32,000 bases of DNA from positions 213,434-245,433 of the forward strand of contig JAPLKZ010000007.1 of the NCBI GenBank assembly GCA_026387835.1, given 5' to 3'. The translations under genes were made by a program, and so were the position numbers. How positions within the stretch are numbered: the stretch's first letter is position 1; each line of letters begins with the position of its first letter. This document shows, piece after piece, positions 6,376 to 29,882 of the stretch. The stretch comes from Candidatus Saganbacteria bacterium. Its GTDB lineage: Bacteria > Margulisbacteria > WOR-1 > JAKLHX01. Under the pieces are notes generated by a model. The model saw nothing but the letters and a program-made list of their open reading frames with translations, ran no database searches and had not been told where the DNA came from.

Positions 6376-9300
6376 TCAGCACATAAAGTTGTTATTACCG
6401 TTTTTGTCGGGTTCGCCGGTTATCGGATCTATTTTTTTTATTGAACCGGCACATATAGTATTACTGTCCTTGCTGTTGAGCATATCTTCTATTTTGGCCT
6501 TCAGGTCTTTTCCGATGCTGTCATTGTCCACTCTTAAGATCGCTTTCTTTACATATTCGGAATTAGATACCAACGCCAGTTGAGACAAGACGGCTATGGC
6601 ATCTTTGGTCTCGAGTACTGAAAGTATATAGGCGGCCACTTCAGGCTTGAAATTCCTTAAGAATTTAGCCGTCTCCTCCGGTCCCATCCCATTAGCGATA
6701 ATCTGAGAAAGGGCTACCTTGGCAGATTCTTTGGTTGCAAATGTCAATATGCTGCTCACCGCGACCTGTTCGATCTTCGGCTTGACGATGTCTTGGTCGG
6801 CAGGATCCTTTACAGTGGCTGTCATGAACAGCTGGGAATTGATCTGATCGAACATCTTCCGCATGATCTTATCGGTCTCATCCTTTAACGCGGGAGATCC
6901 CGGAAGATTTGATATAGTGCTTACGAGATTAAGCAGCTTTGGCATCGACACATTTATATCCGGCTTATCAGTAAGGGTCGAGATCATGCCGATGATCTTG
7001 CTTGCGGCGATTGCCGGGTTTTCAAGTATCATTTTGGCGATATAGTCATTTGATGCGTTGCCCTCAAGAAGTTTTAGTGCTGTCTGTGCTGCCTGCTTGC
7101 ACGTAATATTCGTTGAAGTGTTTTGCAGTGATTCTACGGCATTTTCAAGCTTGCTGATCACCAATTGTTTTGTGCTTTCTTTGATATTCGATCCGGTCAC
7201 CAAAGCTTTTACCTGCGTAAGCGTATCCTGCGCTTCTTCAGGCTTTGAGAAGTTCTTCTGTTTAAGTCCGTAGATGATGTTCTTTGCGTTTGCCGCGCTT
7301 GTGGGATCAAGTTTAGCCGATATGCTGTTAAGGAACTGTTCGATCGGTTTCTTCAACGATTTTATTTGAGCCTCGGTTTCGTTGCCCGAAGCGGATATCC
7401 TTTTGGCGTTGTCTGCCCTGTTCTTTATTCCTATTGCTATCCTTAATATAGATGCGTCTTCATTATTTAATTTATTGTTTTTATCGGCATTTATCTCCGC
7501 CTCAATTTTCTTCATTTCGTTTTCATCAAATACCCCTTTGGTTTCGTTAGTAACTGATGAAGCAGTTGAACTCCTTGATACTTGCTTGTCATCTCTGAAC
7601 GTATCAGGCCTTATGGCAGCCTGCGCCTGGTTGATGACTACAGGGCTCTGTGTCGTCCTCATTATGTTCTCGGCTATCTCAACGGCTTTTACGGCCTGTT
7701 TTGTCTCCTTGGCAATAGCCATCACCTGATGCTGTTTCTGCGGCTCAAGGTTCAATATGATCTGCGCCGCCTGCGTGGGTTCCTTATCCTTAACCGCCTG
7801 GACTATCATCTGTGTCGGCACCACATCAAGCACTTTTGCAGCTTCAGTGGCCGTCATCTCGCCTTTGATGACCTTAGAGACCACCTGCGAGACCGCTTTC
7901 TGTACAGCCTGTTCTGCCTTGCTTACCACTACGTTGGTATTCATGTCCTTGGGCACGTCGGTCGATACCTTGGAAAGTACCGCCACCAGGTCTTTTACCG
8001 CTGCCGTGTTGTTGGCGCTTATCTCGTCATCTATTACTATTATTATCTGGTTTATTACATCTTCTGCCTTTTTGGGATTATCCATCACCATCTGTACAAC
8101 TTTATCTTCCGTTGTAGGCTTCATGTTCATTGCCTGAGGTGCATGCTGTGCTTCCTTCACAGGTGTATATGAGGTCGGCATGCTTTCAGCCTGCTTCACC
8201 TGCGGTTTATTGACTACAGGAGCGGCCTGCACGGCTGTTTTGACTTGAGGCTCTATAACAGCCTGCGGAGCAGCTTCCATTTTCTGCGTGATCTTCTCTA
8301 TCGCCTTGTCTAAGGCCACCGTGATTCTGATATTGTTCGGTACCGCTGCTTTTACTTCTTCAAGCGCTATCACTATCTGCTGCATATTCTCCGGATTCAC
8401 TTTCTTTTCCGAATGTTCTATGACAGCAGGGATCATTCTTGCCACTTTGTCGATCATGTTGGGCTTGCTTGTTATAGCCCGCACAACATCTTCCACCGGC
8501 TTGTTGTTGACTATATCGTTCACCGCTTTCTGTGCCGCATCTTTTGCCCTTACGTTGACAGAGGTATTGTCCACTGCTTCCATGGCCTGCGTCAGCTTTT
8601 GTGCTATGACCTCTTTCACTTTTTCGTTGATCTTTGCACCGTTTGCCATGTCCTTCACCTGAGATATGAACCTCGCCACTTTTTCCGTGTTCGTGAAGTC
8701 GGCTTTCTTTATCTCTGAGCTCATGTCCTTTGCTTTTTTGGCCTCTGTTTGCGGCAGCTTCTCCGCTATCTGTGTCAGGAGCTGTTCCATTGGCTTCTTT
8801 AAGGCATTGAGCTGCGTCGCGGGGTCAACGGCTTTTTGGGATGCCTCTTTAGCGGCTAGAGCCCCGTTCTTTATGACGATGACTGTGGATACTATCCTTG
8901 TATCCGCCTTGCTGGCCTTGGACAAACTCTTCATATTGCTCATCTCCGCCCTTATCATATCTGTTTCTAACCTTGTGAACTCCTCATCAGTAGAGACCTC
9001 TTTGGACGCTTCAGTTGTCGGGGCTTGTTCTACCTGCCTGGGATTCCTGAATGAATCCTGCATTATGATTGGCTGAGCCTGGATGCCGGCTGGAGATACC
9101 TGGTTCCTCCTGGTGTTCTCGGCTATAACTACAGCTTTGATAGCTTGTTGTTTCTCATTGGCCATAGCGATCACCTGATGCCGTTTTCCAGGTTCAAGAT
9201 TGACTATCACCATAGCCGCTGCCTCAGGACTCGCCTTTGCCATGGCTCTCACTGTCACTTCAGCAGGAACGTTGTTAAGCGCTGTGGCCGCTTCTTCAGG

Positions 9301-12300
9301 AGTTATCTTGCCTTCGGCGACCTTTGAGATAACCAGCGAAACGGCTTTCTGTACCTCCTCCTGTACTTGCGGTCTGGTAACTGCAGGTGCGGGGTGTTTA
9401 GTTGTTTCGACCTGCGGCTGTTGTATGATCGCCTGCGGTGCGGTTTTCATATTTTGAATGATCTTTTCTATCGCTTTGTCTATGGCTACGGATACGGGGA
9501 TGTTCCTCGGATCGGATGTTTTTACTTGTTCAAGGGCGATCACTATCTGCTGGACGTTCTCAGGCTTTACCGGCTTTTCAGACTGCTCTATGACGATCGG
9601 GATCATCCTTGCCATTTTGTCTATCATATTTGGCTTGCTTCTTATTGCCTGTACCACCTGGTCCACCGGCATGTTTCTGACTATATTGGCAACTACCTTG
9701 ATGGCTACCTCTTTTGCCTTTACATTGTCGGAGGTGTTCTCTACAGCTTCCTTGGCCCGCGTCAGCTTTTGTGCAATTACTTCTTTTACCTTGTCATTGA
9801 CCTGGGCCTTGCTTGCCAGGTCCTTTATACGATCCATGAAATTAACAACATCTTCGGTATTAGTGAAACTGGCTCCCTTTATCTCCGAGATCATTTCCTT
9901 TGCTTTTTTGGCCTCAGTCGGCTGTAGCTTTGCCGCTATCTGTGTCAGAAGCTGTTCCATAGGCTTCTTTAATGCATTGAGCTGCGTCGTGGTATCAAGT
10001 GCGTTCAGTGATGCCCGCTCAGCGACTTCAGCGCTCCTCTTTATCCTGACGGCTGCGGATAACATCATCATCTCAGCCTTGTTGGCTTTGGGTGCGGTCG
10101 CGTTGTTCACTTCCGTTTGTACTTGGGTTATCTCTGCTGCTAAGGTTATATCTTCTAGCATAGTGGCACTGGACATTGCAACTGTTGAAGCTCTTGGTGT
10201 TTGCACGGTGTCATTGGATCTATCCGATCTTGCGGCAGCCGGTGTCTGGTTGACGGCCGGCGTCATCAGTTTGCTCATGATCCTCTCGGCTATCTCCGCC
10301 GCTCTGACGGCTTGGTTTGTATCCTTGGCCACGGTGATCACCTGCTGTTGTTTCTGCGGTTCAAGCCTTATTATGATCATTGCCGCCTGCGATGGCTCCA
10401 TATCTTTAACTGCGGGCACTATCATCTGCGCGGGCAGCACTTCAAGCATCTTTGCCGCTTCTGAGGCCGATATCTCGCTCGTCGAGACTTTAGCCACTAT
10501 CTTGGAGGCCATATTTTGCGCGTTTTTTGCAGCCATCTCGAGCACGGACACGGATTCTTTCTCCGATCGGGTCATTGATACTGGCGTTCTATCTATGATC
10601 GTGCTGAGGACCGACAATAGTTCGCTGGCACTTGTGACATTGTTGGCCTTGACCGCCTTGTCGGTGGCTGTGGTGATCTGGTTGACCTTGTCTTTTGCTT
10701 CCTCGGGCTTTACGATCGCTAACGTCATTACTTCGTTCTGCAGGCTTTGTTTTACATTGATCGCTTCACTTCTGACTGCAGGTTTGCTCACAGGTCTTGA
10801 TGCTGGCTGCGGTTTTTCCACCCTTGTGGCAATATCTGTTAAAATGTCATCGATTATTTTATCGACCGCACTTTTGATATTTTCAACATTGGAACGTGTT
10901 ATTTTTGCGTATTCTGCTGCTGTTTTGTTATACTGCTCTTCCGGGACGATAAGCTTGATCAAGGCCAGATTGTTTAATGCATTCGGCATCGTGGAAAGCG
11001 CGGATGCTGATAAAGCCTCGCGTATGATATCATTGACGCTGCGAGTTGTCTTTGTTCTGTCTGCTGGCTTTATCTGCACTTCAGGAGAGACGGTTTGATC
11101 TTTGCTCGACGTTAATAATGATATGACATTTGGCGGATGCTGCACCAAGTCCCTCGCCTTGAGTATTTGAGACTCTTTGGCATTCATTATTCTCTTGGTG
11201 AATGCATCGGCGACCTTTTGAAAGTTTGCGGAATCGGTCTTGTAAAGCTTTGCCAAGGCCTGCCCCTCTGATTTCAGAAAATTGTTTTGCATCTCAAGCT
11301 TTTCGCTGGCGCTGGCCTTGCTGAATTTATCCAGGAATTCTTGAGGCATTGTGAGGGTATTTGTTTTTGTGTCAAATTGCGGTAGTTTCCCTGTGTCCGT
11401 GCCCACGACTACGTTGATCTGTTCTTTAGATCCCGAGTTGACATAGAGACTGGCCATTTCGTCCCTTCCCGGCTTTTGTATGGAGCCGGCAATTTTGTAA
11501 AATTTATCGATATTGGCCTGGGTCAAGTTGTCCGTATTGTACCCTAATTGTTTCAGGTTATTTTTCGCATCTGCCAATAAGTTCTGGTCCACGGTCTTTC
11601 CGTCAGCCTTGTATATGCCCTTAGCGGCGCTCTCCATCGGGTCGTACTTGCCGATGTTGTTGACGATGCTCATTATCATTTCCTTTATCAGGCCGCTCAG
11701 GGTCATTTTCTCATCGAGTTCCCTTAAGAACTGCTGGTAAAAGGCTTCAGCGTCGAACATCGCTGTTGACGCGTCCACCTGGGCCTGAAGCTGCAGCTGT
11801 TCCGTCATGGCGAAGACGTTTGGTTTTGCGGCCGCGCCGCCGCCGGCTTTGCCTGCGCCTCCCGCGGCATTGGCTGAACCTCCGGCACTGTCTATATTTA
11901 AATTCTTTCCTTCTTTTTTCTTTGCATTGCCCTTGTTTATTGCGTTTGCTATCATCTTTGCCAGGTTATCGCTGAATAATACAGCGACAAGTGCCTTTGC
12001 AACATAGGAAGCGGCTCTACCGCCCATTGCCGGGGTAAGCAGCTTCTGGGCCCAGGTCGATACAGCGGTGTTCGAGTTTGTCATATTCATGAACCTGTCT
12101 TTTCCTTTAAAAAATGAGGATAAATTTGAAAGAGGGCCGCCGCCGTTAGAATTAAAAAGATGTGAGGCTTTCTTCGCTGCTTCTTGTTTTTCTCTTGCTT
12201 CCTTTTGCGCATCAGTTTCTTGTTTGTTAGCATTTTGAGGTTTTTCTGATTGATTTGGTTGTGTGGATTGACTTTCTGATGTGCCTGATGTGCCTGATGT

Positions 12301-15300
12301 GCCTGTTGTACCTTCGCCGCCGAATTCTAAACCACCGTCTACCGGGTAAGTCCCGTCTGCGCTTCCCTCTTTCTCTTGAACTTGTGTTTTACCGGAAGTA
12401 TCCGCATTTTTTGCCGGGTCATTTTTCACTTCTTTCGCAGCATCTTTAGAAGGCAAACCTTCTGCATTTTCCATTGTATTTGATCCGGGAGTAGTTGTAC
12501 CTTCGGTACCTCCGGTGGTGACATTACCGCCGGCATCGGCACCTCCCGCGTCGGCAGCTCCAACGCATGCCGCGACGATCGAGATGACCGCCTTGACTAT
12601 CGATATGATGAACATGATGTTCGCCATAACGAGTGCTTTCTCGGCATCCCTGATCTGGTTCATCCTGTCCACGTAGGTATGGAGTGTGTCGAACAGCTGC
12701 TGCAGCGCTGTGGTCGAGACTTCCTTGCTCGCTTGAATGCCCATCAGCGTATAATCCTGGGCATCCAGCGCTATGCCGCCCACGGACCTGAGCACCATGT
12801 TCCTTATTCTCCTCTGAGAGTCCATTACTTCCTGTGAAGCTGTCGCGGCGTTATAGGCCATGTCTATCTCTCTTCTCATGATATAGAAATTGCTTTGGTT
12901 CAACCCCACGTAGCCGTCGCTCGTGCTGACGATCAGGTCTTCCGTTGCCTGGGAAAGGATCTCTTTTAATGATTGATAGAGTTTGTCGAAACGGCCCTGG
13001 TCTTTTTGTTTGTCGATGATCTTCAGGACCTCGTCAAGGATATTTGTTTTATACCTGTCGAGGTCGCCGTACCCGGAATTTTTGTCTTCCTCGGCGCACT
13101 TTTTGTTATAGTAAGCCTGCATTATGACGATGGCCGCGATGATGACGGCGGCAACGATCGCCCCGACGCCGGTGCAGGCCAGCACTGCGGCGACGATCTC
13201 CATTATAATCTTCACTGCCGAGAACCAGAGATTGGTCATTGCCCGGTCAAGCTGCTTTTCCCACTGTGTCCGTGCGTTATGCGCGCTTATGTTCTCCCGG
13301 ACCAGTTCCGTCTTCAGTTGAAGTGCCTGCATATATCTTGCGTTCATGGACTTCAGGCCGTTCGATATGGTCTGGAAATGTCTTGCCGTCCATCCGATTC
13401 TTCCCATCAGCTGGAGCATAAGGTCGATGATCTCTTGTCCGGTGGTCTCTATCTGCATCATCCCCAGTCCGAGCATAAAAAGCTGCGACATCTCATCGGA
13501 TAATGCGGTGATCTGTGCCGCGTCGTTCCCCCACATGTCGTCGCCCACGTTTATATGGGACCCGGTAGTCAGCTGGTCGACAAGGCCTCTGTACTGCGTG
13601 GCGATATCGCTGATCGCATCCGCGACCATATTGCCGGTGATGCGTCTTTCTGTTTTATTGTCGTAAAATTTATCATCTTCATGATAAAGTTCCGGCTTTT
13701 CGTGTTCCAGCAGGTACATAATGTTATAAATTCCATCAAAAAGACCTTGTCCCATCATACCGCCTATGATGAAGCCGAGCATATTTGCGAAAAAGCTCCC
13801 GATTATTTTTTCTTTTTCAAGTTCCCATTCTCTTTCCTTGTTGTTTTCCTCGACCTCGTCCCTGAGGCTCTGCATGACGAGGGAAAAAGCCACCTTCATG
13901 TCGTCCTCTAAGGTTACTAACGAATCCTCGACTGCCGGAAGCTCTTCGCCCAGCGGGTTTTGTCCTGTGGCCGCGTAAAGGGCGATCATCACGAGGCGCG
14001 CTTTTGATTCCATCACCAGCATATACGCTTTTCTTAAGTTGTCGATGCTCTCGAGCTTGTCGCCTATACTGTTCAGATATTCTTCGTTCAAAGCTTTGAA
14101 CCCGTCGCCGACCCCTATTATGCCCCCGTTATAAGCGGTCATGATAAGATCGTTTTCTTCTTTGTCCAGCTGGTCGAGGATGTTATTGCATATCGACTTC
14201 ATCGAGATGCCCCACAGGTTCAATGCTTCCTCGACATTGTCGAAATTGATCCTTGTCGGTGTATACTGGAAATCCTCGATGGTCAACAGATATATGACAT
14301 CGGTAATTTTTTCCACAAAACTGGCGACAAAAAAAAGTGCGGGGCAGAACAAGCAGATGCCGAATGCCGTCCACATCGAGTCCAGCATTTCTTTTGCTTT
14401 TTCATGTTCCCACACTGAATAGGCGTATTTGTTGCGCGCCTCTATCTCCAGTTGCAGCTGGTTTATGTTGGCCAGCAATAATGTTCTTTCGCCGTCCGTG
14501 GTGTATTTGAGATAATCAAAGACCATGTTCCATCTTGATGAGTCGGAGGTTATCCCCGACATTATCTCGATCATCATGGATTTGAGCTTTTCTTTCACGG
14601 AGAGCGACATGTAATAGGCTTTTCTCAGGTCGTTGATTATCGTTTGTCCGTGGAGTATGGCGTATGCCAGGTCTTTGTTCAGGTCGTAATAACTATTCCC
14701 GTAGCCGTTATCGCCGGCTGCTGCCATCAGATACTGGCGGTTGGCCTCGTCCAGATAATTCAGTTCGAGTTTGACGAACGGGTCGGCGGTCCTCCTCTTT
14801 CTTTCTTCGATCACCACGTCGAGGAAGCCTTTAAGAGTGTCCGTCAGACTGGCCTGCACGTCCTTAAATGCTCTATCGATCGCTTCTTTTGCCGCGGTGT
14901 ATTTTTCCTCGTACTCTCTGTGCGTCGCGTCGAGTCCGATGAAATCAAGAAGTGAATTGATACAGCTGGAGGACCCGCCTTGTGCGGAAGCTTGCGCGCC
15001 CAGCATTTTTCTGTCATATTCCGCGTTGTTTTTATCATGTATGTAGTTCATCGTGTTGGTAAATATGAACTTTGGCCCCTGCATATCATGCCTGAAGCCT
15101 TTATTTATGATCTCAGTGTATTTGACGTCCCTGGAAGAGGCCTCCTTAGGCCCTTTAAAAAGCTGGAGAATGTAGCCCTTGATGTTTTCCTTAGTTTCGC
15201 CGATCATCGCGATACCGAGAAGCAGCGACCATAATTCCTGCAGCTTGTAATAATAGTCTTTGAATTTCGGATCAAGCGTGATATAACCGTCGCCGTAATC

Positions 15301-15791: not shown

Positions 15792-15823
15792 AAAATAATA
15801 GCGATTTATTAGCTGATTATTTT
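15792..15823 (-). terminator. possible AT-rich hairpin terminator after the 389-aa gene
   Basis: Minus strand: AAAATAATCAGC-TAATAAATC-GCTATTATTTT. This gives an 11-bp stem with one bulge and a 3' arm ending in TTTT, starting at the stop codon. The stem is almost entirely A/T, so it is weak. Confidence 0.3.
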
Positions 15824-17630: not shown

Positions 17631-17643
17631 AATATTATCCTCC

Positions 17644-20394: not shown

Positions 20395-22041
20395 TTATGC
20401 CTCCACCAGATGTTCGGAGCCTTCGACCGGGATCTTATCAGGCTCCGGACCGCTGCTTGTCTCCTCGATCAAACGTTTTTCGACTAGCCGCAGTTTTGAT
20501 ATCTCTTTTAAGATATTGTTGTTCTTTCTTCTCGTCAGCATGTCGTTCATGACCTCTATCTGCCTCCGGACTATATCGATCATTCTCTTGTTGGCGTTAT
20601 ACTTCAGGCTCTCGAACTCCGGTTCGCTTATGTCTATGCCGAGACGGGCCGCGTTCTTCAAAAGGCCTTTCATTTTCTTCTCGACAAGCTTGAAGGCCGG
20701 GCCGCGCAGGTGATACAGCGTAGCGCGTTCTAGCAGGGCTTCTTTTATCATCTCCACGACTTTTTCTTTAGCGGAGATCTCCGCCTCAAAAGCTATCTTC
20801 TCGTCGAGCTCTCTCGTGTATACGGACAGGGCCATCAGCCCGTTCTTGAGTTTCCTGATCTCGAAGCTGGTCGTAAGGTACGTCCTGAGGTCGTTTTTCA
20901 GGAGGCGCTTCATATAAAGCCCGCGCATCCTGTTCACAAGTATCTCTTTCTCGTCATCTTTGGTGTATTCGAACTCGCCTTTTTCTTTTTTTCCTCCGCT
21001 CTGATCGTCGGTGCTGGTATTTACCTGCAGGCCTACGTTTCCGACGGGAACATCTATCAGATTGAACCCGAGGTCCTCTTTTCTGTCTTTCCAGACTTTA
21101 TTTGCCCATTTATCGATATCGGTGCCGGTTTTTTTCAGCATATTCAGTATCGGGGTAATATCATCGCTCGATTTGTCCTTGTTTACCATCTTGCTTATCA
21201 GTTTTTCTTCAAGATGTTCGAGAGCGAACTTTGACAGCTCCTCCTTGACCTTTTCGCCGGCGGAATCGACCGTCCCCTGAAGGTTGTCGTTGTACCCGCC
21301 GAAATCCCATCCGCCCGTCTTCTCGTTGAAGAAGGAGTTTTCAAGAATGCTGTGGGTAGCCTGCTCGAAAAAGGCGCTTTCGAGCTTGCTCCCGGAGAGC
21401 TCGCGCATAAGGAGGGTCTCTTTTATCTTCACCGAGATATCGGCTCTGATGGCTGCCCTTGCCTCTTTCTGCAGTCCGGCCATATCCTTGTCGGACAGGC
21501 CTTTTTCCTTCAGCGCGGCTTCAAGCTTCACCAGTTTTTCGGGAGTCGTTTTTTTGTTGTTAGTGAGGAACTCGCAGTAAGCGGCCGAATACTGCTCGAC
21601 AAGGGTCTGGGCTTCTTTGTTGTCGGCAAAGTTTGAACCGTTGTTCAGGTTAAAACTGTTGGCTATGCGGCTGGCTGTCTTTTTGATGATGACCTTGCCG
21701 ACCTCCACGGAGTCTTTTTCTGTCTCCTCCCCGGCCTTTTTCGGCGCGTCTTCTTTTTCCCTTGCGCCTATCTTCTGTCCTTGATCAAGCGGGTTGCCGG
21801 CCAGTATTATCCCCGAGCCTGCTACCTTGTTGACTATCGCTCTTAGCACGGACATGCCTTCCTCGCCGAAGTTCTCCGCCTCAAGCACCTGCATGAGGTT
21901 CTCCTCGATCCTTGCGGAGTCGTACTTGCTTTTTGTAAAGTTTTTGTCCTTGATATCGCCCGCAACTCCGGATATCAGGGCGTTATTGGCTATGGCCGCC
22001 ATTTCCTGGCTTGCCGCTTTGTTGAGTATGTTCACTGACAT
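20395..22041 (-). CDS. hypothetical protein (548 aa), Lys/Glu-rich helical
   Basis: ATG preceded by GGGGGAAATGAA, 14 nt after the upstream stop codon. No TM segment or signal peptide. No motif recognised. Confidence 0.8.
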   Translation of the reverse strand: MSVNILNKAASQEMAAIANNALISGVAGDIKDKNFTKSKYDSARIEENLMQVLEAENFGEEGMSVLRAIVNKVAGSGIILAGNPLDQGQKIGAREKEDAPKKAGEETEKDSVEVGKVIIKKTASRIANSFNLNNGSNFADNKEAQTLVEQYSAAYCEFLTNNKKTTPEKLVKLEAALKEKGLSDKDMAGLQKEARAAIRADISVKIKETLLMRELSGSKLESAFFEQATHSILENSFFNEKTGGWDFGGYNDNLQGTVDSAGEKVKEELSKFALEHLEEKLISKMVNKDKSSDDITPILNMLKKTGTDIDKWANKVWKDRKEDLGFNLIDVPVGNVGLQVNTSTDDQSGGKKEKGEFEYTKDDEKEILVNRMRGLYMKRLLKNDLRTYLTTSFEIRKLKNGLMALSVYTRELDEKIAFEAEISAKEKVVEMIKEALLERATLYHLRGPAFKLVEKKMKGLLKNAARLGIDISEPEFESLKYNANKRMIDIVRRQIEVMNDMLTRRKNNNILKEISKLRLVEKRLIEETSSGPEPDKIPVEGSEHLVEA

Positions 22042-22055: not shown

Positions 22056-22262
22056 TTAAGAGATCCTGTGGTTCTTATCTTTCAGCTTCCTGATCTCGGC
22101 GGCGATCTTAGACTGTTCCGCGACCGCTTTTTTGATAATTTTTTCGAGCGTCTTGTTGTGCATTTCAAGGCGGCGTTCCGCCTTTATCAAAAAAGCGTTT
22201 ATCTTGATAAGTTTTAGGGCCAGGTCGCCCCTTGATAACCTGTCCTGTTCCTGATCCTGCAT
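22056..22262 (-). CDS. hypothetical small coiled-coil protein (68 aa)
   Basis: The tracked 124-aa ORF overlaps the upstream gene by 151 nt. The internal ATG at 22262 (MQDQEQDRLSRGDL) follows the upstream stop codon by 17 nt and has a strong SD sequence (TGAAAGGGAGGGAACGCGCG-ATG). Confidence 0.55.
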   Translation of the reverse strand: MQDQEQDRLSRGDLALKLIKINAFLIKAERRLEMHNKTLEKIIKKAVAEQSKIAAEIRKLKDKNHRIS

Positions 22263-22279: not shown

Positions 22280-23047
22280 TCAGCAGATCCCGTGGTCGAA
22301 CATCGAAAGCTGGTATTCGATCCCCATCTTTTCCTCGAGCAGCCTGGACGATATCTTCTTGCATTGCTCGGTCTGTACCTCGAGCACTTTTTCTTTCGTG
22401 AAATATTCGGTCAGTCCGAGCCTTTCGCACTGCGTGATCAGCTGCTTCCTGATCTCGGAGATGACCGTTTTTTGCGTCTTGACGTATTTTCTCGGGCCCC
22501 CTATTATATTGAGCAGTTCCGAAGTGTATTCGTTCTCTTCAAAAAGTATCTTATTCTGTGAGATCGCGTTCGAAGTGGCTTTTCTCTGCATCTGTATGAT
22601 CTCCTGGCAGCTGGTCCCGAGCAGCGACAGCATCGTCCCGTAAAAAGACAGTTTCATTTCGGCGAACTTCGACACCAGGAGGTTGTGCGACCTTGAAAGC
22701 ACAAAGTTCTTCATGTAATTTTCCTTGAACGAGTCCACCTTTGATTTCAGGTCTATCTTTATGCCGAACATGTTCAGGACATCCGGCCTTTTCACGCTTC
22801 CCTCGGTCTGCACCGAAGACACGTCCACGTCCGACGATATCGGCAGCGCGTTCAGGGTGAGTTTTCCGTCCACTTCCTCGACCGTCCATTTGATCACAGG
22901 GGCGCTGTCCGTTACCTTCGGAGCATTGTTCTGCTGGGGCTTCTGGAGAGCTTCCTGTTTCCTGGCAAGAAGCTGTTCCATCATAGCCTTGTTGTAAAGC
23001 TTTGTTCCGTCGAGATTAGTGCTGGTGCCCGTGTTCATTAAAAACAC
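22280..23047 (-). CDS. hypothetical protein (255 aa)
   Basis: First gene of a tightly packed four-gene unit. GGAAGG lies upstream of the ATG, and the conserved promoter lies 56 nt upstream. No motif recognised. Confidence 0.75.
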   Translation of the reverse strand: MFLMNTGTSTNLDGTKLYNKAMMEQLLARKQEALQKPQQNNAPKVTDSAPVIKWTVEEVDGKLTLNALPISSDVDVSSVQTEGSVKRPDVLNMFGIKIDLKSKVDSFKENYMKNFVLSRSHNLLVSKFAEMKLSFYGTMLSLLGTSCQEIIQMQRKATSNAISQNKILFEENEYTSELLNIIGGPRKYVKTQKTVISEIRKQLITQCERLGLTEYFTKEKVLEVQTEQCKKISSRLLEEKMGIEYQLSMFDHGIC

Positions 23048-23204: not shown

Positions 23205-26200
23205 TTATTTGGATTTTTGTTTGGATCCGCTTTGTCTTTGTTGCGCGATTTTTTTCATCAAAGCAGAGAATGAGGCGTTATTTTGTTGCTTCTTATCATT
23301 TTCCTGCTTTGCCGCGGTTTTTTTGTCATCCCTCTCGTCATCTTCCTTCTCTTTTTTGCCTTCTTTGTATTCTTGCATCTTCCTTTCGTACTCTCTATGC
23401 TTCTGGGAGTTGACTATATTGTTTCCCATTAACTCATTCATAAAGCCGTATGTTTCAGCTTCATACAGTGCTCCGACCTCATGCGTCATCCAAATATATT
23501 TTGAGGCCTGGACGGCAGTCCAGCCATAATCCTGTATACCACCCGGATTATCATACCCTCCATAGGCATTAATTGTTCCTCTCCAGAAATTAGCCTTGGC
23601 ATATTCGCCCATTTCGACATTTATTCGGACCATTGCAGAATTCAGATTCATAACGTTCAAATTATTTATTTGTTGTCCGATCGAATAAAAATGATGCTGT
23701 CCGCTTAGATATCCGTAACCTTGCTTATCCGATGAAGAAGCGTAATGAACATATCCGTCGTAAGGAGGATTGCCTCCTCCCCAATAATTCGTATAAACAT
23801 TATTTATTATGTCCGAAGGTTTGCTGCCATATGGGTGTCTTGCATCATCATAATTTATATTATAAGAGTAACGAGATGCTCCTGCCGGAGCCAAATTGGA
23901 GTTGTCGTCTTCAAATACTCCGATATTTGAAATGAAATTACCAGCTGTGGTATCCCATGACCTGCCCCCCCAAAATGAAGCAGGCTGCCGCGAGTGTGTT
24001 GCTGTGGAAGTATCGGTATACGTCAATTCACCTTTGAATTCATCGAAGGCCGGATCCATATATGTCATGTATTTGTTGATCTTAGTCGCGTAGTCACGCA
24101 ATTTAGCAGCATCCATTGTAGCACCAGTAGTACTTGTTGTTACCGGTGTTGTTACTGGCGTTGTTACTGTTGTCACTCTGCCAGTAACAGGATCTGTTGT
24201 TGTTGTTGTTGTATATGTTGTTACATCTGTTGTCGTGGTTGTGGTTGTCTCGGCAGGCGGCAGGTCTGCAGTAAGAGCGTCCATGGCGGTCTTGACGCCG
24301 ATCCAATATCCTCCAGCAGGAGAAGTATCTGGTATCCATACTTGTTTATCCGCATCAAGATAATATGTTGATAGTTTAAGCTCGTTTTTATTAGCTCCAT
24401 AATAAGTTATAAAAGCATTGACGTTGGTTGTATATGTGTTATAGGTATCTTTTTGTTCTTGTGTTGGAGGAGTTGTAGAAGGTGTAAATACGCTTGCGCC
24501 GGCACAACCAGAGCTTGTGTATTTATCATGCAAAGTTTTCATCGGAGAATTGTTATAATAATTTGTAAGATTTGTGCTCAGCCAGCTTCTGAAATTGGAA
24601 AGCCTGTAGTAATCGGTCGTGGAATACCAGCCCCCACCCAAACTATTCCCACTCATGGGACCGAAGTCCATGATCCACTGGGAAAGCCTGTGCTGCGCCA
24701 GTGAGAATGTCTGCAGAAACGTCTTGTTGTAATCCCCGGATTCCTTCCCTGTCCAGGGATCAGCTGAACTTTCGGTATCCCCCCTGTGATAGTCGCCCAT
24801 CCATTTATCAAAGCTCTTGATCATGGCGTTGTCGAGCGAACCATTATAAGTTGTAGTCGGCTTGTCATCAGAAGCGCCATTATATATATTATTTAAGCCG
24901 ATATTTTGGCTATACCAGCTCATATTGTAATATTGTGAATGCGGGCCGAAGAGCTCGGTCATCCCCGCAAAATACCTTCTCCGCGATTCAAGTAATAACA
25001 CAGCTATATTGAATGCGGCTTGGGACTCAAAATTTGGCTCTCTCCCTGTCGTCCACCAAGAATCTTCAGAACAATTATTTGGGTTGGTATATGCTTTATC
25101 CCCATATCTGTTATCAAAATTCCACGGGGCGCTCGGGTCCATCGCAAGCTCATAAAACGAAGGGGCACCCACCTTATATTGGTCGCCGTTGAATTTGGAA
25201 TAATCCGTGTTCGATGAATACCCGTTGAAAAATGATTCCGCGTTGGTAAATGAACTTGAATAGTCCGCCAGATTTGGAAGGTCGAGTTTTGAAAGCTCCG
25301 TTCCGGAGGGCCCGTCCCAATTTCTGAGCATGGCAGGGTTCGAACCGTAGAAGAAGTTGTTGTAATCGACCGGATGATAATTGTTTATTGTAGTTTTATA
25401 ATCCCCGCCCGAATTATTCAAAAGATATGTATATTGGTCTGTCGCGTCTTCCGAAGCCGCATATACGGGAAATGCTGTAGCAACTATAGATCCATCGTTT
25501 CTCATGCCATAGGCAGTTTGGTTTTTTGAAAGGTCTCCTTTTCCGACAAGAAAATCAACTCTTGTATCGGTTTCTTTAACTGGATTGAAATCCCAGAATG
25601 CTGGTGTAAAGTTAAATGGGAATTCTGATCCTTTTCCTGCTCCGAGAAAGTCAACTACGCCATCATCTGATGATTGGGAATGCCTTTTTCCGAAACCCGG
25701 CTGACCAACGGGATCATGTTGCGGGCCGGACCCCAGCTTGTCCCATATCGCTGATGCTAATTTGTTTTTATCATAATCGGATAATCCCCCATACCAGCGT
25801 GAAAACTCTTCTCCAGCTATCAATTCATCCTTATAAACCCTATAAATTTGATTTTTATACTTTTGAACGTTTAAGAGGCCGTTGCTATCAAGATAACCCA
25901 AATTTTTCAAGGCGTTAAATAAATCCGTGCCATGTCGTTCAAAACCAGCACCAGAGCAGGCGTCAGTAAAATCAGAACCTGTAAAAATTGTAGTAAACGG
26001 ATGGCCAGCTGTTGTATTTACATTTGTACTTGTGCAAAACTCATATGGCGCCCATGTTCCATCCTCATAGTTAGATGAATATATCTCTGATTCTGCGCGC
26101 GGGATGAACTTCATCATGTTAAGCAGGAAATTGTACCTGTTACTCAGCCATCTCTTGCCGCGCGGCGTGGTCTCATTATAAAGCAAATTCTCGAGCCCGT

Positions 26201-26270
26201 ATTCCGGAGTTTCTGACGAGATGGGGAGCCACATCTGCGGCTTGATCTCTAGAGGATTGTCGTAACTCAT
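23205..26270 (-). CDS. hypothetical large protein (1021 aa): Trp/Tyr/Asn/Gly-rich, poly-Thr linker, Lys/Glu/Asp-rich tail
   Basis: Uninterrupted 3 kb ORF with no signal peptide (MSYDNPLEIKPQMWLPISSE). Thr-rich tract TTTTTTDVTTYTTTTTTDPVTGRVTTVTTPVTTPVTTSTTG at about nt 24127-24252. No catalytic motif recognised. Confidence 0.85.
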   Translation of the reverse strand: MSYDNPLEIKPQMWLPISSETPEYGLENLLYNETTPRGKRWLSNRYNFLLNMMKFIPRAESEIYSSNYEDGTWAPYEFCTSTNVNTTAGHPFTTIFTGSDFTDACSGAGFERHGTDLFNALKNLGYLDSNGLLNVQKYKNQIYRVYKDELIAGEEFSRWYGGLSDYDKNKLASAIWDKLGSGPQHDPVGQPGFGKRHSQSSDDGVVDFLGAGKGSEFPFNFTPAFWDFNPVKETDTRVDFLVGKGDLSKNQTAYGMRNDGSIVATAFPVYAASEDATDQYTYLLNNSGGDYKTTINNYHPVDYNNFFYGSNPAMLRNWDGPSGTELSKLDLPNLADYSSSFTNAESFFNGYSSNTDYSKFNGDQYKVGAPSFYELAMDPSAPWNFDNRYGDKAYTNPNNCSEDSWWTTGREPNFESQAAFNIAVLLLESRRRYFAGMTELFGPHSQYYNMSWYSQNIGLNNIYNGASDDKPTTTYNGSLDNAMIKSFDKWMGDYHRGDTESSADPWTGKESGDYNKTFLQTFSLAQHRLSQWIMDFGPMSGNSLGGGWYSTTDYYRLSNFRSWLSTNLTNYYNNSPMKTLHDKYTSSGCAGASVFTPSTTPPTQEQKDTYNTYTTNVNAFITYYGANKNELKLSTYYLDADKQVWIPDTSPAGGYWIGVKTAMDALTADLPPAETTTTTTTDVTTYTTTTTTDPVTGRVTTVTTPVTTPVTTSTTGATMDAAKLRDYATKINKYMTYMDPAFDEFKGELTYTDTSTATHSRQPASFWGGRSWDTTAGNFISNIGVFEDDNSNLAPAGASRYSYNINYDDARHPYGSKPSDIINNVYTNYWGGGNPPYDGYVHYASSSDKQGYGYLSGQHHFYSIGQQINNLNVMNLNSAMVRINVEMGEYAKANFWRGTINAYGGYDNPGGIQDYGWTAVQASKYIWMTHEVGALYEAETYGFMNELMGNNIVNSQKHREYERKMQEYKEGKKEKEDDERDDKKTAAKQENDKKQQNNASFSALMKKIAQQRQSGSKQKSK

Positions 26271-26314: not shown

Positions 26315-26638
26315 TTATCCGATCAGCTTTGAAACCGAATCCTGGAATGATCCCTGTTTTGTAAGCAGGTCCATGGCCATGGTGTTGATCGACTCGAGCT
26401 GGCTGGTATACCTGTTGATGACGAATAAAGCTGCTGCGGAACTTTTGTCGTCAAGTTTTATGCCGTTTATCTCAATGGACTTTGTGGTCGGGTCCGCCAT
26501 TTCCATCGACACCTTATTCAGCGCATCGTACAAATAAATAAAAAGGTTCTTGAAACCGAATGATGTGGTAGAAAGATTCCCTGGTTTTGCCTGGGCACTT
26601 GATATAGAAAGCTGATCATTTATAGAGTCGAGTACCAT
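26315..26638 (-). CDS. hypothetical small protein (107 aa)
   Basis: ATG preceded by AAAGGAG. Polar N-terminus, C-terminal amphipathic helix (AALFVINRYTSQLESINTMAMDLLTKQGSFQDSVSKLIG). Lies 44 nt upstream of the 1021-aa gene. Confidence 0.65.
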   Translation of the reverse strand: MVLDSINDQLSISSAQAKPGNLSTTSFGFKNLFIYLYDALNKVSMEMADPTTKSIEINGIKLDDKSSAAALFVINRYTSQLESINTMAMDLLTKQGSFQDSVSKLIG

Positions 26639-26668: not shown

Positions 26669-26703
26669 CTTTTTATCTATCTTAAGGGGTGCCCCGTTTT
26701 GCA
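26669..26703 (-). promoter_or_regulatory. weaker variant of the conserved promoter upstream of the 107-aa gene
   Basis: Minus strand: TGCAAAACGGGGCACCCCTTAAGATAGATAAAAAG. The -10 reads AGATAG instead of CGATAG, and the spacer is 2 nt shorter. It overlaps a GGGGTG...CACCCC inverted repeat. Confidence 0.35.
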
Positions 26704-26742: not shown

Positions 26743-27042
26743 TTAACCTTTTGCATCCCTCAGAGCGTTCTTCTGCATCGTCTGTTTTTCTTTTTCGGCT
26801 ATTGCATCCGCTGAGCTTTTTACTTCTGTTCTGGCTGCCGCTGTTCCTATCACGAACAATTGCGCTGCTCCCACTTCCGTTCCTTTGCCTAATGTGATGT
26901 GCAGATTATTGCCGTTGTTGTCATACAAGTTCGGAAGCATTACGTCTGTCGGTGCATTGGCTACCATCGCACATGCTACATCTTCTATCCCTTTGTCATT
27001 TGCGATCAGATCTGCTACGACTCCTGCTATTGAGTTTGTCAT
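26743..27042 (-). CDS. hypothetical small protein (99 aa)
   Basis: ATG preceded by GAGAGGGGGTG, and it has its own copy of the conserved promoter. No motif recognised. Confidence 0.65.
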   Translation of the reverse strand: MTNSIAGVVADLIANDKGIEDVACAMVANAPTDVMLPNLYDNNGNNLHITLGKGTEVGAAQLFVIGTAAARTEVKSSADAIAEKEKQTMQKNALRDAKG

Positions 27043-27144: not shown

Positions 27145-28902
27145 TTATGGCTGAGCATATTTCAGCATGGCCTTTGCTATCGCATCCAGCTTCTGCGGTA
27201 TGAGCGTCAGAGCCTGGATCGTGGTCTCTATGATGTTGCTTGACTGCCCTACCTGGAACAGCTCGCTAGCGTCAAGTCCGTCCGAAGCGTCAATATAAAC
27301 GCCCAGACCCGGAAGATAGACACTGGCCGATTTGCCGGCCAGGCCCCTTGCCACATCGTTATTCTGCGTATCGAGGGCCAGTACCCTCTGGTATATGCCG
27401 TAGATCATATTTTGGCCCTGAGAAATTAAGCTCCCGCTTGTAGTAGTAGGTAAAGGATTCAAACCGTAAGGATTGGCCGCCACCAGTTCAGCAAGCGTCA
27501 TTACGCCGTCATTGGTAAGGGGCGTTGCCAAAACATTAACTCCATCTCTCATCCAGTTCCATCCGAGAAGATTCTGAGAGTTAACGATTCCGGGTGCAGG
27601 ACTAGTTCCAATAACCGAGCTCCATTCCGTGGCAAAATCGATCACTCCGTCGCTATTCGTATCCGTAAGCGCGAACATGAATTTGTTGATATCAATTGTA
27701 TTATCACCGCTGTTAAGATATGAATAAAGGCGGCTTAATGTTCCGGTAAGATTTGTAATCGGAAGGTTTGATCCTACCCAGTCGCTCATACTTATTTTCC
27801 CGTCGCCATCCACGTCAATCGCTCCAAAATCCGCGGAAGTAAATATGCCCTGGTTCCAATTGGCTCTGTTAGTGTTGTTTATGTTAACATGTATATTCCA
27901 ACGACTTAAAGTTATATCCGCATCGGTACCTCTTATATCGTCGAACATTTGATCTGATTCTGCGCGTGTCTTATTTATTCCGAGCGTGCTGACAAAGTCA
28001 TACAATTCATCTTTGGAGATCTTCATGTCTCCATTGGCATCTAACATCGTAAAATCAGCACTTGATACCTGATCGCTATTCCAGGTATTTTTATAGAAAG
28101 TGTTTATTGTGTTAGTAAAGGCCAGATTTTGAGCTATGGTCGGGCTTGCTGCTAATGGAATTATTTTTGCTGTTCCAAGTGCCAGATTTGCATTCGAGTT
28201 TGTAAATCTGGTTATATTAGCTGCCGTGATCCCTAAACTGGTCAATGTGGAATTTTTTATGCCTCCGTTCCCGTTTGCGTCCAAGGACGATCTGAATATC
28301 CTTACTATATCGGCTAAGCCATAATTTCCGCTGTTAAATCTTGCTGCGTCAGCCACAAAGGCATTCAACCCTTGCGCGTTAATTACATATCCACCTGCTT
28401 CGCTTCTTGCTGCAAGATAATTGAATAATGTCGTATTAGCATGTAAAGGGTTAGTTGTAGCGGCCCATTCGCTTGCGTTAATTACCCCGTCATGGTTCGT
28501 GTCTATCGTAGTAAAGTCCATGTTGGTAAATAAACCTGCGACAGTCAATTTAGGAAGTTGATAAGAAGTCCATTCGTCTCTGGTTATCTTAAGATCATCG
28601 GAGGTTATATTTGTCCCTGTATGTTTTAGGGGATTGGCTACAGTATTGAATGATGTGGCAATATTTGAATTTGTCGTACCAACCCTGTAATCACTCGGAT
28701 CAATGTTGTTGCTGCTAAGATACGCTTTGAATCCGTTCTCGGTTACTATTCCGTCTTGAAATCCGTCGGCACTGTCCATGGCATCAAAATCCGCGGCTGA
28801 CATGAATTGATCTGCAGTCGCAGTAGTAAAATCAGAACAATCTACAGTTGTTCCTGTATCACTGCCGTCTGTTATTGTTACCGGATTTTGAATCGCTGCC
28901 AT
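27145..28902 (-). CDS. EF-hand-loop (calcium-binding-type) repeat protein, 585 aa, no signal peptide
   Basis: Three canonical 12-residue EF loops: DTNHDGVINASE (nt 28468-28503), DANGDMKISKDE and DVDGDGKISMSD. There are also degenerate copies (DSADGFQDGIVTE, DANGNGGIKNST, DTNSDGVIDFATE). Each is preceded by an (A)DF-x-x-(I/L/M) motif. Confidence 0.8.
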   Translation of the reverse strand: MAAIQNPVTITDGSDTGTTVDCSDFTTATADQFMSAADFDAMDSADGFQDGIVTENGFKAYLSSNNIDPSDYRVGTTNSNIATSFNTVANPLKHTGTNITSDDLKITRDEWTSYQLPKLTVAGLFTNMDFTTIDTNHDGVINASEWAATTNPLHANTTLFNYLAARSEAGGYVINAQGLNAFVADAARFNSGNYGLADIVRIFRSSLDANGNGGIKNSTLTSLGITAANITRFTNSNANLALGTAKIIPLAASPTIAQNLAFTNTINTFYKNTWNSDQVSSADFTMLDANGDMKISKDELYDFVSTLGINKTRAESDQMFDDIRGTDADITLSRWNIHVNINNTNRANWNQGIFTSADFGAIDVDGDGKISMSDWVGSNLPITNLTGTLSRLYSYLNSGDNTIDINKFMFALTDTNSDGVIDFATEWSSVIGTSPAPGIVNSQNLLGWNWMRDGVNVLATPLTNDGVMTLAELVAANPYGLNPLPTTTSGSLISQGQNMIYGIYQRVLALDTQNNDVARGLAGKSASVYLPGLGVYIDASDGLDASELFQVGQSSNIIETTIQALTLIPQKLDAIAKAMLKYAQP

Positions 28903-28979: not shown

Positions 28980-29258
28980 TCATCTTTCAAGAAACCCGTT
29001 TTTCCTTTCCGCCGATTCAACCCTGCCTATGAGATCAAATACGGTATCAGTCTTGCTATACGAACCTTTTTCCTGCTTATGTCTTTTTATATCACTCTTG
29101 TCCTTGCCTGCGTTCTTTGACACGGGAGCCAGGAACCCGAACCCGGCGTTCTTGACCGCTTCCAGAAAAGCGCCCGAGTTGGCTGCCGGCCGGCTCGTAC
29201 TGTGGTTTTTCCCCGCATCGACGGAATTGGATGAAAAATATGGGTTGATGATGTTCAT
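28980..29258 (-). CDS. hypothetical small protein (92 aa), basic
   Basis: Third gene of a tricistronic unit, 9 nt after the upstream stop codon. No motif recognised. Confidence 0.55.
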   Translation of the reverse strand: MNIINPYFSSNSVDAGKNHSTSRPAANSGAFLEAVKNAGFGFLAPVSKNAGKDKSDIKRHKQEKGSYSKTDTVFDLIGRVESAERKNGFLER

Positions 29259-29267: not shown

Positions 29268-29474
29268 CTATACGACAACATTCAATGTCATGTTCTTATT
29301 GAAAAGCATGTTCACATCTTCAGAATTCACGGCTGGATTTGTTTTTTCAGCACCCGCCACGTTGGTCCCCGCATTATTACCTTTCAGGAATTCCTGCGCG
29401 GTCTGCTCGTATGCGTCCCGCAGCTGGGTCGCGAGGCCTTTTGAACCTTGATTTACCGGTTGTCCTTGCGTCAT
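29268..29474 (-). CDS. hypothetical small protein (68 aa)
   Basis: The ATG directly abuts the upstream TAG (AAATAG-ATG), with GGGGAG inside the upstream gene serving as the SD sequence. No motif recognised. Confidence 0.55.
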   Translation of the reverse strand: MTQGQPVNQGSKGLATQLRDAYEQTAQEFLKGNNAGTNVAGAEKTNPAVNSEDVNMLFNKNMTLNVVV

Positions 29475-29657
29475 CTATTTATTACTCCCCTGTTTTAAAG
29501 CGTCTTTTATGACATCCAATTCGGGGGTTGACACTTGAATATTGCTCATGACCGGAAGCGAAACGTTCGTGTTTGGCGAGACGAAAGACATCTTCAACTC
29601 GTTCAATATCGAATTGACCTGAGCGTTAACTGTATCTATGTCTACTCTTGCCGCCAT
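29475..29657 (-). CDS. hypothetical small protein (60 aa)
   Basis: ATG preceded by GAGGAAACAATA, with the conserved promoter ending 11 nt upstream. No motif recognised with confidence. Confidence 0.55.
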   Translation of the reverse strand: MAARVDIDTVNAQVNSILNELKMSFVSPNTNVSLPVMSNIQVSTPELDVIKDALKQGSNK

Positions 29658-29705: not shown

Positions 29706-29711
29706 GTGTTT

Positions 29712-29843
29712 TCAATTGCCGCTCACCGCCGGCTCTTCCTTTTTCGCCTCGGACTGCTTCTCCGCTTCCGAGATGACCTCCATGATCGCCTCGATGACCT
29801 TCTCGTCGCACCATTCCGGGAACTCCAATTTACAATTATCCAT
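29712..29843 (-). CDS. possible unannotated 43-aa acidic small ORF (MDNCKLEFPEWCDEKVIEAIMEVISEAEKQSEAKKEEPAVSGN), potentially leaderless
   Basis: Found by hand translation, because it is below the 60-aa cut-off of the ORF track. Its ATG lies 2 nt after the 3' end of a conserved promoter copy, and there is no SD sequence. The peptide looks helical and protein-like. There is no other support. Confidence 0.3.
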   Translation of the reverse strand: MDNCKLEFPEWCDEKVIEAIMEVISEAEKQSEAKKEEPAVSGN

Positions 29844-29845
29844 AT

Positions 29846-29882
29846 CAAGTAATTTATCGGAACATCACGGTATTAACTTGCA
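29846..29882 (-). promoter_or_regulatory. sigma-28-like conserved promoter, most upstream copy (drives the small ORF or a short RNA)
   Basis: Minus strand: TGCAAGTTAATACCGTGATGTTCCGATAAATTACTTG. The -10 reads TCCGATAA. It lies 177 nt upstream of the copy at 29669-29705. Confidence 0.55.

Follow-up and report, generated by a model that had tools for sequence, protein, structure and literature searches.

The 32,000-nt stretch of a Candidatus Saganbacteria genome analyzed here (hereafter, the window; coordinates are window positions unless a locus label is given) contains, at positions 6376-29882, a block of 18 genes that is a real, lineage-specific, co-regulated system. Two observations carry this conclusion: the genes share a repeated promoter-like motif, and the block is preserved as a unit in related genomes. 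All credible open reading frames (ORFs) of the block lie on the minus strand, as noted in the preliminary description that was made from the sequence alone. Table 1 lists them in the order of transcription, from a gene encoding 43 amino acids (aa) to one encoding a giant protein of 3107 aa. The regulatory layer is of a known kind, best described as the regulon of a flagellar-clade sigma factor, and the cargo is new, consisting of five phylum-restricted protein families and about a dozen faster-evolving small genes. As to function, we lean, with somewhat less than even confidence, toward a late-class island that would specify a membrane-anchored platform and acidic, calcium-binding, probably glycosylated proteins that leave the cell independently of Sec, most plausibly through a flagellar type III pathway.

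A promoter-like motif repeated across the block

The motif has the consensus ATGCAAGTT-N15-CGATAnATAwATAG. The pattern GCAA-N18-CGATANNTANNTAG matches the window five times, against 0.00 matches expected from 100 shuffles. A position-weight matrix (PWM) built from 28 instances, with sites counted above 12 bits, detected eight sites (P1 to P8 in Table 1), all on the minus strand, intergenic and inside the block, compared with none in the flanks and 0.1 per shuffled window. Six of these sites score 26-39 bits and are strong; the scores of the other two, 22.5 and 14.9 bits, are lower. A ninth, degenerate site was located with a regular expression. The original division of the block into nine units, each headed by the motif, is thus matched by eight PWM sites plus one degenerate site, but the support is unequal among the units.

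The start codon follows the end of the motif by 1-50 nt, which leaves room only for very short leaders, and the motif is often followed immediately by a Shine-Dalgarno sequence. Among the loci recovered from relatives (denoted by L-numbers, with L001 and L003 corresponding to the source-genome region), four (L008, L042, L023 and L031) contain start codons located only 1-3 nt past the motif, for example, TATATAGAGATG; should transcription begin within ATAG, the respective mRNAs would be leaderless or nearly so. In the source genome, about 3 kb past the right end of the window, a motif site of 18.7 bits precedes a 48-aa ORFan in the gap between purF and glnA (L001 2407-2607), indicating that the regulon reaches beyond the block.

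The possibility that the motif is an RNA hairpin sequestering the ribosome-binding site was considered and rejected, given that the complementarity between the spacer and the downstream sequence is at the chance level (mean 4.1 vs 3.9, p ~0.18). With an unconserved spacer, fixed spacing, no excess of complementarity and no Rfam match in the window, a promoter recognized by a protein is the best interpretation. Sigma-70-like promoter sites in the window modestly exceeded the level of shuffled sequences and were not positioned before the genes, and predicted terminators were at the chance level.

The motif resembles the promoters of sigma-28, for which the consensus is TAAAGTTT-n11-GCCGATAA (PMC2859248). 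The -10 core CGATA is present in seven of the eight window sites (CGAAC in P2) and is invariant in about 30 sites of relatives; the GC located 5' of CGATA, which is part of the sigma-28 -10 consensus, is not conserved. The -35-like element is (T)GCAAGTT(T), where AAGTT(T) is common to the sigma-28 consensus, but GC replaces the consensus TA, and the gap between this element and CGATA is 14 nt, compared with 13 nt in Escherichia coli. In L050 and L048, the stretch downstream of CGATA differs (ATATATGTGG), with ATGCAAGTTT and CGATA remaining fixed, as expected if those two elements contact the sigma factor. Judging from these sequence features, the best candidate for the cognate factor is a group-3 sigma of the flagellar clade (FliA/SigD/WhiG). 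The C-terminal part of a FliA/WhiG-like sigma factor (TIGR02479, E 2.6e-20) is encoded in L014, 6 kb from a motif site. WhiG retains the flagellar promoter specificity although it has been redeployed to control sporulation or type IV pili (PMC8325347).

The spread of the motif was assessed with a strict 38-nt degenerate pattern (~39 bits), for which few chance matches per collection were estimated. Among 185,579 species-representative genomes, 13 motif loci were found, six of them in Margulisiibacteriota or Saganbacteria by name; the remaining seven include six from further metagenome-assembled genomes (at least one with block homologs) and one evident chance match in a Bacillus relative. The same pattern retrieved 21 motif loci from metagenome contigs. 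Except for a handful of apparent chance matches, the motif in both collections is located directly upstream (1-50 nt) of an ORF on the same strand. These ORFs encode mostly ORFans of 53-275 aa or giants exceeding 1500 aa, including several EF-hand proteins and one alpha/beta hydrolase. The dedicated alternative-sigma regulon envisaged initially is therefore supported by a group-3-like promoter architecture that is conserved across the phylum and precedes orthologous genes. The enrichment of the motif, with eight sites in the window against 0.1 and recurrence almost only in Margulisbacteria and Saganbacteria, points the same way.

Conservation of the block in related genomes

Searches with local BLAST, phmmer and jackhmmer defined a conserved core of five families, represented by the giant and by the 548-, 255-, 1021- and 107-aa proteins, which are syntenic in at least eight related loci. 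Two loci, L043 and L047, retain the whole arrangement: PPase, four or five small genes, genes for proteins of 105, ~900-970, ~310, ~547 and ~500 aa, two small genes and the giant, with an acyltransferase and/or a glycosyltransferase that combines GT2 and TPR domains (GT2-TPR) directly following the giant gene. Downstream of the giant, these two loci encompass the acyltransferase, GT2-TPR, APH, methyltransferase, hisA, hisH, ROK, groESL and nusA genes. Rearranged versions of the block were identified in L044, L045, L048, L050, L023, L016 and L011. The motif precedes both the 255-like and the giant genes in L043, L044, L047, L045, L048 and L050, and the 548-like gene in L011 and L050; a P8-type site is kept before the giant orthologs in L008, L042, L043, L044, L045, L047, L048 and L050. 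The block thus is, as the preliminary description proposed to verify, syntenic in related genomes, often between the same housekeeping flanks.

The block evolves fast. Between the window and L043, the block proteins are 21-42% identical, compared with 89% for GroEL, 68% for HisA and 66% for ROK, and most of the small block proteins are unrecognizable. The genes for the 585-, 346-, 67- and 389-aa proteins and a lipid operon next to the block are specific to the source genome. An exhaustive HMMER search of 1.84 billion cluster representatives with residues 1-1060 of the giant identified only 35 proteins with E <= 1e-3, 31 of which are longer than 1000 aa; the named ones belong to Margulisiibacteriota, and the members of the family have no Pfam domain in common. 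Word-indexed homology searches with the 1021-aa protein, the N-terminus of the giant and the alignment of the 1021-aa family returned the self-match or nothing, probably because low-complexity words saturated the candidate list. A metagenome scan with the giant alignment produced no confirmed relative, and identical copies of the source sequence were present in several Logan assemblies.

Recent horizontal transfer is not indicated. The GC content of the window is about 45%, that of the block (0.38-0.51) is close to that of the flanks (0.40-0.50) and does not shift abruptly where the block begins, and the block keeps the same place in the chromosome. In two relatives, genes of the 23S_rRNA_IVP-type four-helix-bundle family (PF05635) are inserted in the block (L048 929-1333 and L050 19195-19566), and an ORF within the block in L011 (4752-5120) resembles these genes by its look.

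Proteins of the block and associated genes

The N-terminal part of the giant contains hydrophobic segments at approximately aa 438-462, 632-664, 821-862 and 1020-1047. Residues 120-1060 were modeled with AlphaFold2 using a 22-sequence family alignment, with a mean predicted local distance difference test (pLDDT) of 74.3 and a predicted template modeling score (pTM) of 0.72. The model consists of five tandem modules, each with a beta-hairpin and two helices, one of ~40 and the other of 50-68 residues, and the first three hydrophobic stretches fall exactly on the helix-turn-helix tips. This arrangement suggests that the giant inserts hydrophobic hairpins into the membrane; with hairpin anchors, all its soluble parts would be on one side. 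Foldseek searches of the model against PDB and BFVD revealed no significant fold match (best BFVD hit, E 1.6e-3, TM 0.10) and, in particular, no significant match to a ClyA/Hbl-type fold with a beta-tongue; the Bacillus Hbl-B component ranked tenth (E 0.44, probability 0.15; not significant).

The modules are followed by a low-complexity Gly/Thr/Ser-rich linker (aa 1050-1300) and, at aa 1700-3080, by three repeats of 400-480 aa, with mutual identities of 34-68%, and a terminal partial copy. The giant contains four segments of the type EPxxAAxIIxxLEPxKxxxV. A profile of these four repeats, when compared with PDB, yielded FliG as all three top matches (E 0.02-0.3), and Pfam comparison of the giant yielded MgtE_N (E 4.6e-5, 24.3 bits, cutoff 25.9) and FliG_M (E 0.003, 18.3 bits, cutoff 25). 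One of the 22 giant-family members examined matches MgtE_N (E 1.8e-4).

With respect to the other proteins, searches of Pfam, NCBIfam and PHROGs yielded no match above the curated thresholds except for the EF-hands of the 585-aa protein (EF-hand_1, E 7e-14, 50.7 bits, cutoff 25.4, along with EF-hand_5, _6 and _7), and PDB sequence and profile searches likewise matched only calmodulin-type EF-hands in this protein. Accordingly, the confident homology of most block proteins to known families that would have spoken against a novel system was not found in Pfam or PDB. Most of the proteins are true ORFans in Pfam, NCBIfam, PHROGs and PDB. The only PHROGs match was to a family of unknown function (E 0.004). 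No block protein matched Flagellin_N/C, Flg_bb_rod, FliD_N/C, FliS or FlgM in Pfam even at E up to 0.1-1, and none matched the injectisome components SctF, SctA, SctE, SctB or their chaperones in Pfam, NCBIfam, PDB or the Foldseek search of PDB. Paralogy within the block was limited to marginal matches with E above 0.01. Weak similarity (E 0.036) links the 99-aa protein to the last 80 residues of its neighbor, the 585-aa protein, of which it may be a duplicated fragment.

The 1021- and 585-aa proteins are acidic, with a net charge of -29 each, and rich in Thr, Ser, Asn, Gly and Tyr; the former also has a poly-Thr/Pro linker and a Lys/Glu-rich tail, and the latter weakly matches the XopAW family of type III effectors (E 3e-8, below cutoff). 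This composition is of an extracellular type and possibly that of glycosylated proteins, although a Sec signal is missing. Most of the other block proteins are rich in Lys, Glu, Leu and Ala. A single-sequence AlphaFold2 model of the 548-aa protein is all-helical, with a pLDDT of 46, and too poor to use. No N-terminal signal peptide (Sec) was detected in any block protein, and hydrophobic or transmembrane segments are confined to the giant.

The 1021-like proteins of L016 and L023 contain calcium loops of the form DxDGDGRVTN. EF-hand or dockerin-type loops also occur in unrelated motif-driven proteins, namely, those of L019 (498-809) and L030 and the giants of L045 (10001-20128) and L043 (10001-20566). 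From these sequences, calcium binding seems to be a common thread of the regulon as a whole rather than a peculiarity of the 585-aa protein.

On the left, the block is flanked by genes for a PlsC-like acyltransferase, a FabG/ACP/dehydratase/two-KAS operon, GT2-TPR, an APH-like kinase, a methyltransferase, HisA/HisH, a ROK kinase, GroES/EL and NusA, and on the right, by those for an NDP-sugar pyrophosphorylase, RpiB, GlnA and PurF. In L043, L044, L048 and L050, the acyltransferase gene is next to the block or, as in L050, within it; the GT2-TPR gene lies within the block in L016, beside it in L043, L044 and L047, and 5 kb away in the source genome. The identity between the window and L043 is 27% for the acyltransferase, 34% for the APH-like kinase and 37% for GT2-TPR, that is, these proteins evolve as fast as the block. 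Because of this rate and their movement with the block, we regard the acyltransferase and GT2-TPR as associated parts of the system; the same may apply to the APH-like kinase. The best family match of GT2-TPR is SunS (NCBIfam TIGR04195, E 6.6e-19, 68 bits vs a cutoff of 350); it belongs to the same general type without being a SunS equivalog. The operon at 1550-5513, which encodes FabG, ACP, a FabZ- or ApeP-like dehydratase and two KAS proteins, is the insertion specific to the source genome; its product could be a special acyl chain for the neighboring PlsC-like acyltransferase. HisA and HisH were considered as sugar-amidation proteins and rejected: both score above the equivalog cutoffs as genuine histidine biosynthesis proteins, so that this flank represents conserved gene order and not a part of the system.

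The protein sizes given originally hold apart from two small genes. The 48-aa ORF at 29668-29814 is probably not a gene, as it overlaps a promoter-like site and is not conserved; a 43-aa gene is found there instead. The 124-aa ORF with a GTG start at 22056-22430 is better replaced by a 68-aa gene.

Table 1. Genes and promoter-like sites of the block in the order of transcription, followed by two associated genes
Feature	Position	Strand	Evidence and remarks
Promoter-like P1, ATGCAAGTT-N15-CGATAAATTACTTG	29845..29883	-	26.3 bits; upstream of 43-aa gene
43-aa gene, FPEW motif	29712..29843	-	Conserved in L043, L047; public gene call in L003
Promoter-like P2	29668..29706	-	22.5 bits, weaker; upstream of 60-, 68- and 92-aa genes
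60-aa gene	29475..29657	-	Positional homolog in L043; common VxxxIxSILxxL motif
68-aa gene	29268..29474	-	ORF and public gene call
92-aa gene	28980..29258	-	ORF and public gene call
Promoter-like P3	28932..28970	-	38.5 bits; upstream of 585-aa gene
585-aa acidic Thr/Asn/Asp-rich EF-hand protein, monocistronic	27145..28902	-	Pfam EF-hand_1; absent in L043, L047
Promoter-like P4	27084..27122	-	34.4 bits; upstream of 99-aa gene
99-aa gene	26743..27042	-	ORF call
Ninth, degenerate promoter-like site	26674..26703	-	Regular expression; precedes 107-aa gene
107-aa core-family gene	26315..26638	-	Homologs in 7 loci
1021-aa core-family protein	23205..26270	-	Family alignments, jackhmmer; no PDB/Pfam match
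Promoter-like P5	23103..23141	-	38.3 bits; upstream of 255-aa gene; position occupied in L043, L044, L047, L016, L023
255-aa core-family gene (252 aa from ATG)	22280..23047	-	Split into two genes in L016, L011
68-aa coiled-coil gene	22056..22262	-	Public gene call; positional equivalents in L048, L049
548-aa core-family protein, predicted all-helical	20395..22041	-	37% identity to L043 ortholog; AlphaFold2 pLDDT 46
346-aa Asn/Lys/Ile-rich protein	19353..20393	-	Translationally coupled to 548-aa gene
Promoter-like P6	19305..19343	-	38.7 bits; upstream of 67-aa gene
67-aa gene	19088..19291	-	ORF call
445-aa protein, N-terminal half Pro/Ala/Gln-rich	17644..18981	-	Positional equivalents of 480-618 aa in relatives; no PDB match
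98-aa gene	17367..17663	-	Pairs of 80-115-aa genes at same position in relatives
98-aa gene	17060..17356	-	ORF call
Promoter-like P7	17003..17041	-	14.9 bits, weak; upstream of 389-aa gene
389-aa helical protein	15823..16992	-	ORF call
Promoter-like P8	15720..15758	-	34.2 bits; upstream of giant gene
3107-aa giant	6376..15699	-	Repeats, AlphaFold2 model, FliG/MgtE_N-like segments
PlsC-like acyltransferase, associated, just outside block	5579..6298	+	Pfam PF01553
GT2-TPR glycosyltransferase (SunS-like), associated	430..1542	-	Best family match SunS

Possible functions and comparison with known systems

Under the export reading favored above, a flagellar-clade (sigma-28/FliA/WhiG-like) sigma factor would switch on the Margulisbacteria-specific island as one late-type regulon, with about eight promoters of the form ATGCAAGTT-N15-CGATAnATAwATAG firing together. 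The giant, with four hydrophobic helical hairpins as its putative anchors in the cytoplasmic membrane, would build a membrane-anchored platform together with the Lys/Glu-rich helical proteins (548, 255, 346, 389 and 445 aa). The acidic calcium-binding proteins (1021 and 585 aa) might be glycosylated in the cytoplasm by the co-travelling SunS-like GT2-TPR and would then exit Sec-independently, most plausibly via the flagellar-type III pathway that relatives possess. The adjacent small helical proteins (about ten, 43-107 aa) could act as chaperones; the 107-aa gene immediately precedes the 1021-like gene, or the gene in the equivalent position, wherever a locus contains both. A broader proposition, that the block specifies an undescribed envelope- or motility-type apparatus of Margulisbacteria, with at least five unique families, a hairpin-anchored scaffold of 2000-4000 aa carrying FliG-like repeats, calcium-binding partners and a flagellar-clade sigma taken over in part or entirely from the flagellum, is tentative and less likely than not.

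The links to flagellar type III genes are indirect and come from relatives. In L046, fliL, fliN, fliO and fliP are located 4-6 kb from the giant homolog, with FliP scoring 298 bits (cutoff 217) and FliN above the equivalog cutoff. In L048 (24139-25980), a variant of the motif (14.7 bits) precedes genes for a FliK-like protein (Flg_hook, E 0.0017) and a 129-aa protein similar to the C-terminal part of FlhB (Bac_export_2, E 2e-20); this pair lies ~8 kb downstream of the giant gene, past hisA/hisH, ROK and mreBCD.

Several results weigh against export by this route. Flagellar genes occur near the block in two of the nine contexts examined and in none of the other seven, and the window together with 10 kb on either side contains no export apparatus, ATPase, sigma or anti-sigma gene. 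The ~40 motif-driven genes of relatives include no flagellin, hook-associated, motor or chemotaxis gene, which weakens the simple interpretation of the block as late flagellar substrates. In profile searches, the block families matched none of the flagellar or injectisome substrates and chaperones whose structures have been solved, and the similarity of the giant repeats to FliG and MgtE_N remains below the curated thresholds. Finally, the missing signal peptides are equally consistent with soluble products that are all cytoplasmic.

Some of the same results fit an alternative in which the regulon involves no export, which seems possible though well short of probable. A co-opted sigma factor would then control an intracellular, membrane-attached scaffold or cytoskeleton-like assembly responsive to calcium via the EF-hands, and this assembly may organize a specialized membrane domain together with the acyltransferase and the fatty-acid-type operon. 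Such an assembly would agree with the lack of signal peptides, with the hairpins of the giant as the only membrane segments and its soluble parts on one side, with the predominance of helical Lys/Glu-rich proteins in the block, and with the absence of canonical flagellar genes behind the motif. The acyltransferase stays with the block through rearrangements, the lipid operon is inserted beside it here, and the co-option of WhiG provides a precedent (PMC8325347). However, the poly-Thr linkers, acidic composition and calcium loops seen in the 1021- and 585-aa proteins are found more typically in bacterial proteins outside the cell, and divergence this fast is more usual for exposed ones. The position of the motif before the FliK-like/FlhB-C-like pair in L048 also speaks against a purely intracellular assembly.

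It is unlikely that the block encodes effectors or a device for membrane attack on a host, prey or partner, where the giant would resemble a translocator or pore-former and the other ORFans would be fast-evolving effectors and their chaperones. The quick divergence and lineage restriction of the ORFans would be compatible with this possibility, and, in bearing hydrophobic hairpins at the tips of long helical bundles, the giant is reminiscent of the translocators of injectisomes, of chlamydial Inc proteins and of ClyA-type toxins. Some Margulisbacteria are ectosymbionts. The weak, below-cutoff match of the 585-aa protein to XopAW and the tenth rank of Hbl-B in the Foldseek search also point in this direction, although the Hbl-B match is not significant. 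Against an offensive role, the C-terminal two-thirds of the giant consists of FliG/MgtE_N-like repeats typical of cytoplasmic proteins, no toxin, enzyme or immunity-like domains were found with Pfam or NCBIfam, and the block occupies a stable chromosomal position amid housekeeping genes in free-living groundwater and sediment lineages.

It is less likely still that these are ordinary late flagellar genes that diverged past recognition, such that the 548- and 346-aa proteins would correspond to FlgK and FlgL, the 445-, 98- and 98-aa proteins to FliD, FliS and FliT, and the 585-aa protein to flagellin. Compared with the E. coli flagellar genes, the sizes, the operon order and the sigma-28-type promoters indeed mimic flgKL, fliDST and fliC. 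The N-terminus of the 585-aa protein is, however, unlike the conserved helical N-terminal segment of flagellin, and the 585- and 346-aa genes are missing from the syntenic relatives. The Pfam searches at E 0.1-1 for Flagellin_N/C, Flg_bb_rod, FliD and FliS were negative, and the family profiles match no solved flagellar protein. Moreover, members of the phylum are reported to encode recognizable flagellins (PMC7018530). A mobile element, be it the remnant of a prophage, a contractile injection system or tailocin, a defense island or something else of this kind, as suggested by the many ORFans, the very long helical protein and weak BFVD matches that include tape-measure proteins, is extremely improbable: these matches are not significant (best E 1.6e-3, TM 0.10), there is no PHROG hallmark and no integrase, sheath, tube, baseplate or capsid domain in Pfam or NCBIfam, the composition is like that of the flanks, and several diverged genomes have the block at one fixed place in the chromosome, flanked by the same housekeeping genes.

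Margulisbacteria are a sister lineage of Cyanobacteria and Melainabacteria. If the interpretation of the block is correct, an entire candidate phylum next to Cyanobacteria possesses a conserved, tightly co-regulated set of proteins that is not recognized by databases, and one more case would join the few known of flagellar-clade sigma factors in control of non-flagellar or accessory programs. With so sharp a promoter, the regulon can be delineated from sequence alone, which offers an experimental handle on an uncultivated lineage, and the giants would make up a new family of membrane proteins with a tractable repeat architecture.

Among known proteins, the translocators SipB/IpaB/YopB, the Inc proteins and the ClyA/Hbl/MakA toxins combine long antiparallel helices with a hydrophobic hairpin tip, and the ClyA-type toxins additionally contain a small beta-hairpin. 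The giant is similar in having hydrophobic hairpins at the tips of long antiparallel helices but has no significant match to these proteins, and fuses five modules in tandem, followed by 2000 aa of other repeats. The four segments of the giant resemble the armadillo-like domain of FliG and MgtE_N, with matches to FliG, MgtE_N and FliG_M that are all sub-threshold, whereas the context is a 3107-aa membrane protein rather than a rotor protein or a magnesium channel.

SunS and the flagellin glycosyltransferases GmaR and FlmG are cytoplasmic protein glycosyltransferases with TPR or helical substrate-binding domains. The GT2-TPR protein shares this combination of domains and is encoded beside or inside the block, near Thr/Ser-rich proteins without a Sec signal; it differs from SunS in scoring 68 bits against the cutoff of 350, with the gene 5 kb from the block in the source genome.

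The late regulon of sigma-28 (FliA/SigD) in E. coli, Salmonella and Bacillus is a close regulatory parallel, with AAGTT in the -35-like element, CGATA at -10 and near-identical spacing, and with many short units in which genes for large proteins lacking a Sec signal are mixed with those for ~100-aa proteins. The block differs in that the -35 element begins with GC instead of TA, an additional conserved ATAwATAG follows the -10 element, no product is homologous to flagellar proteins, and the motif-driven genes of relatives include no canonical flagellar gene. Sigma-28 also directs late genes in Chlamydia and the Fed/CiaI genes in Campylobacter, some of whose products leave via the flagellar export gate. 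In Streptomyces and Rubrobacter, the flagellar-clade sigma factor WhiG drives non-flagellar genes (PMC8325347). The block resembles these cases in consisting of lineage-specific genes without a motor function but, unlike in them, the regulon is dominated by one conserved 18-gene island with a giant membrane protein.

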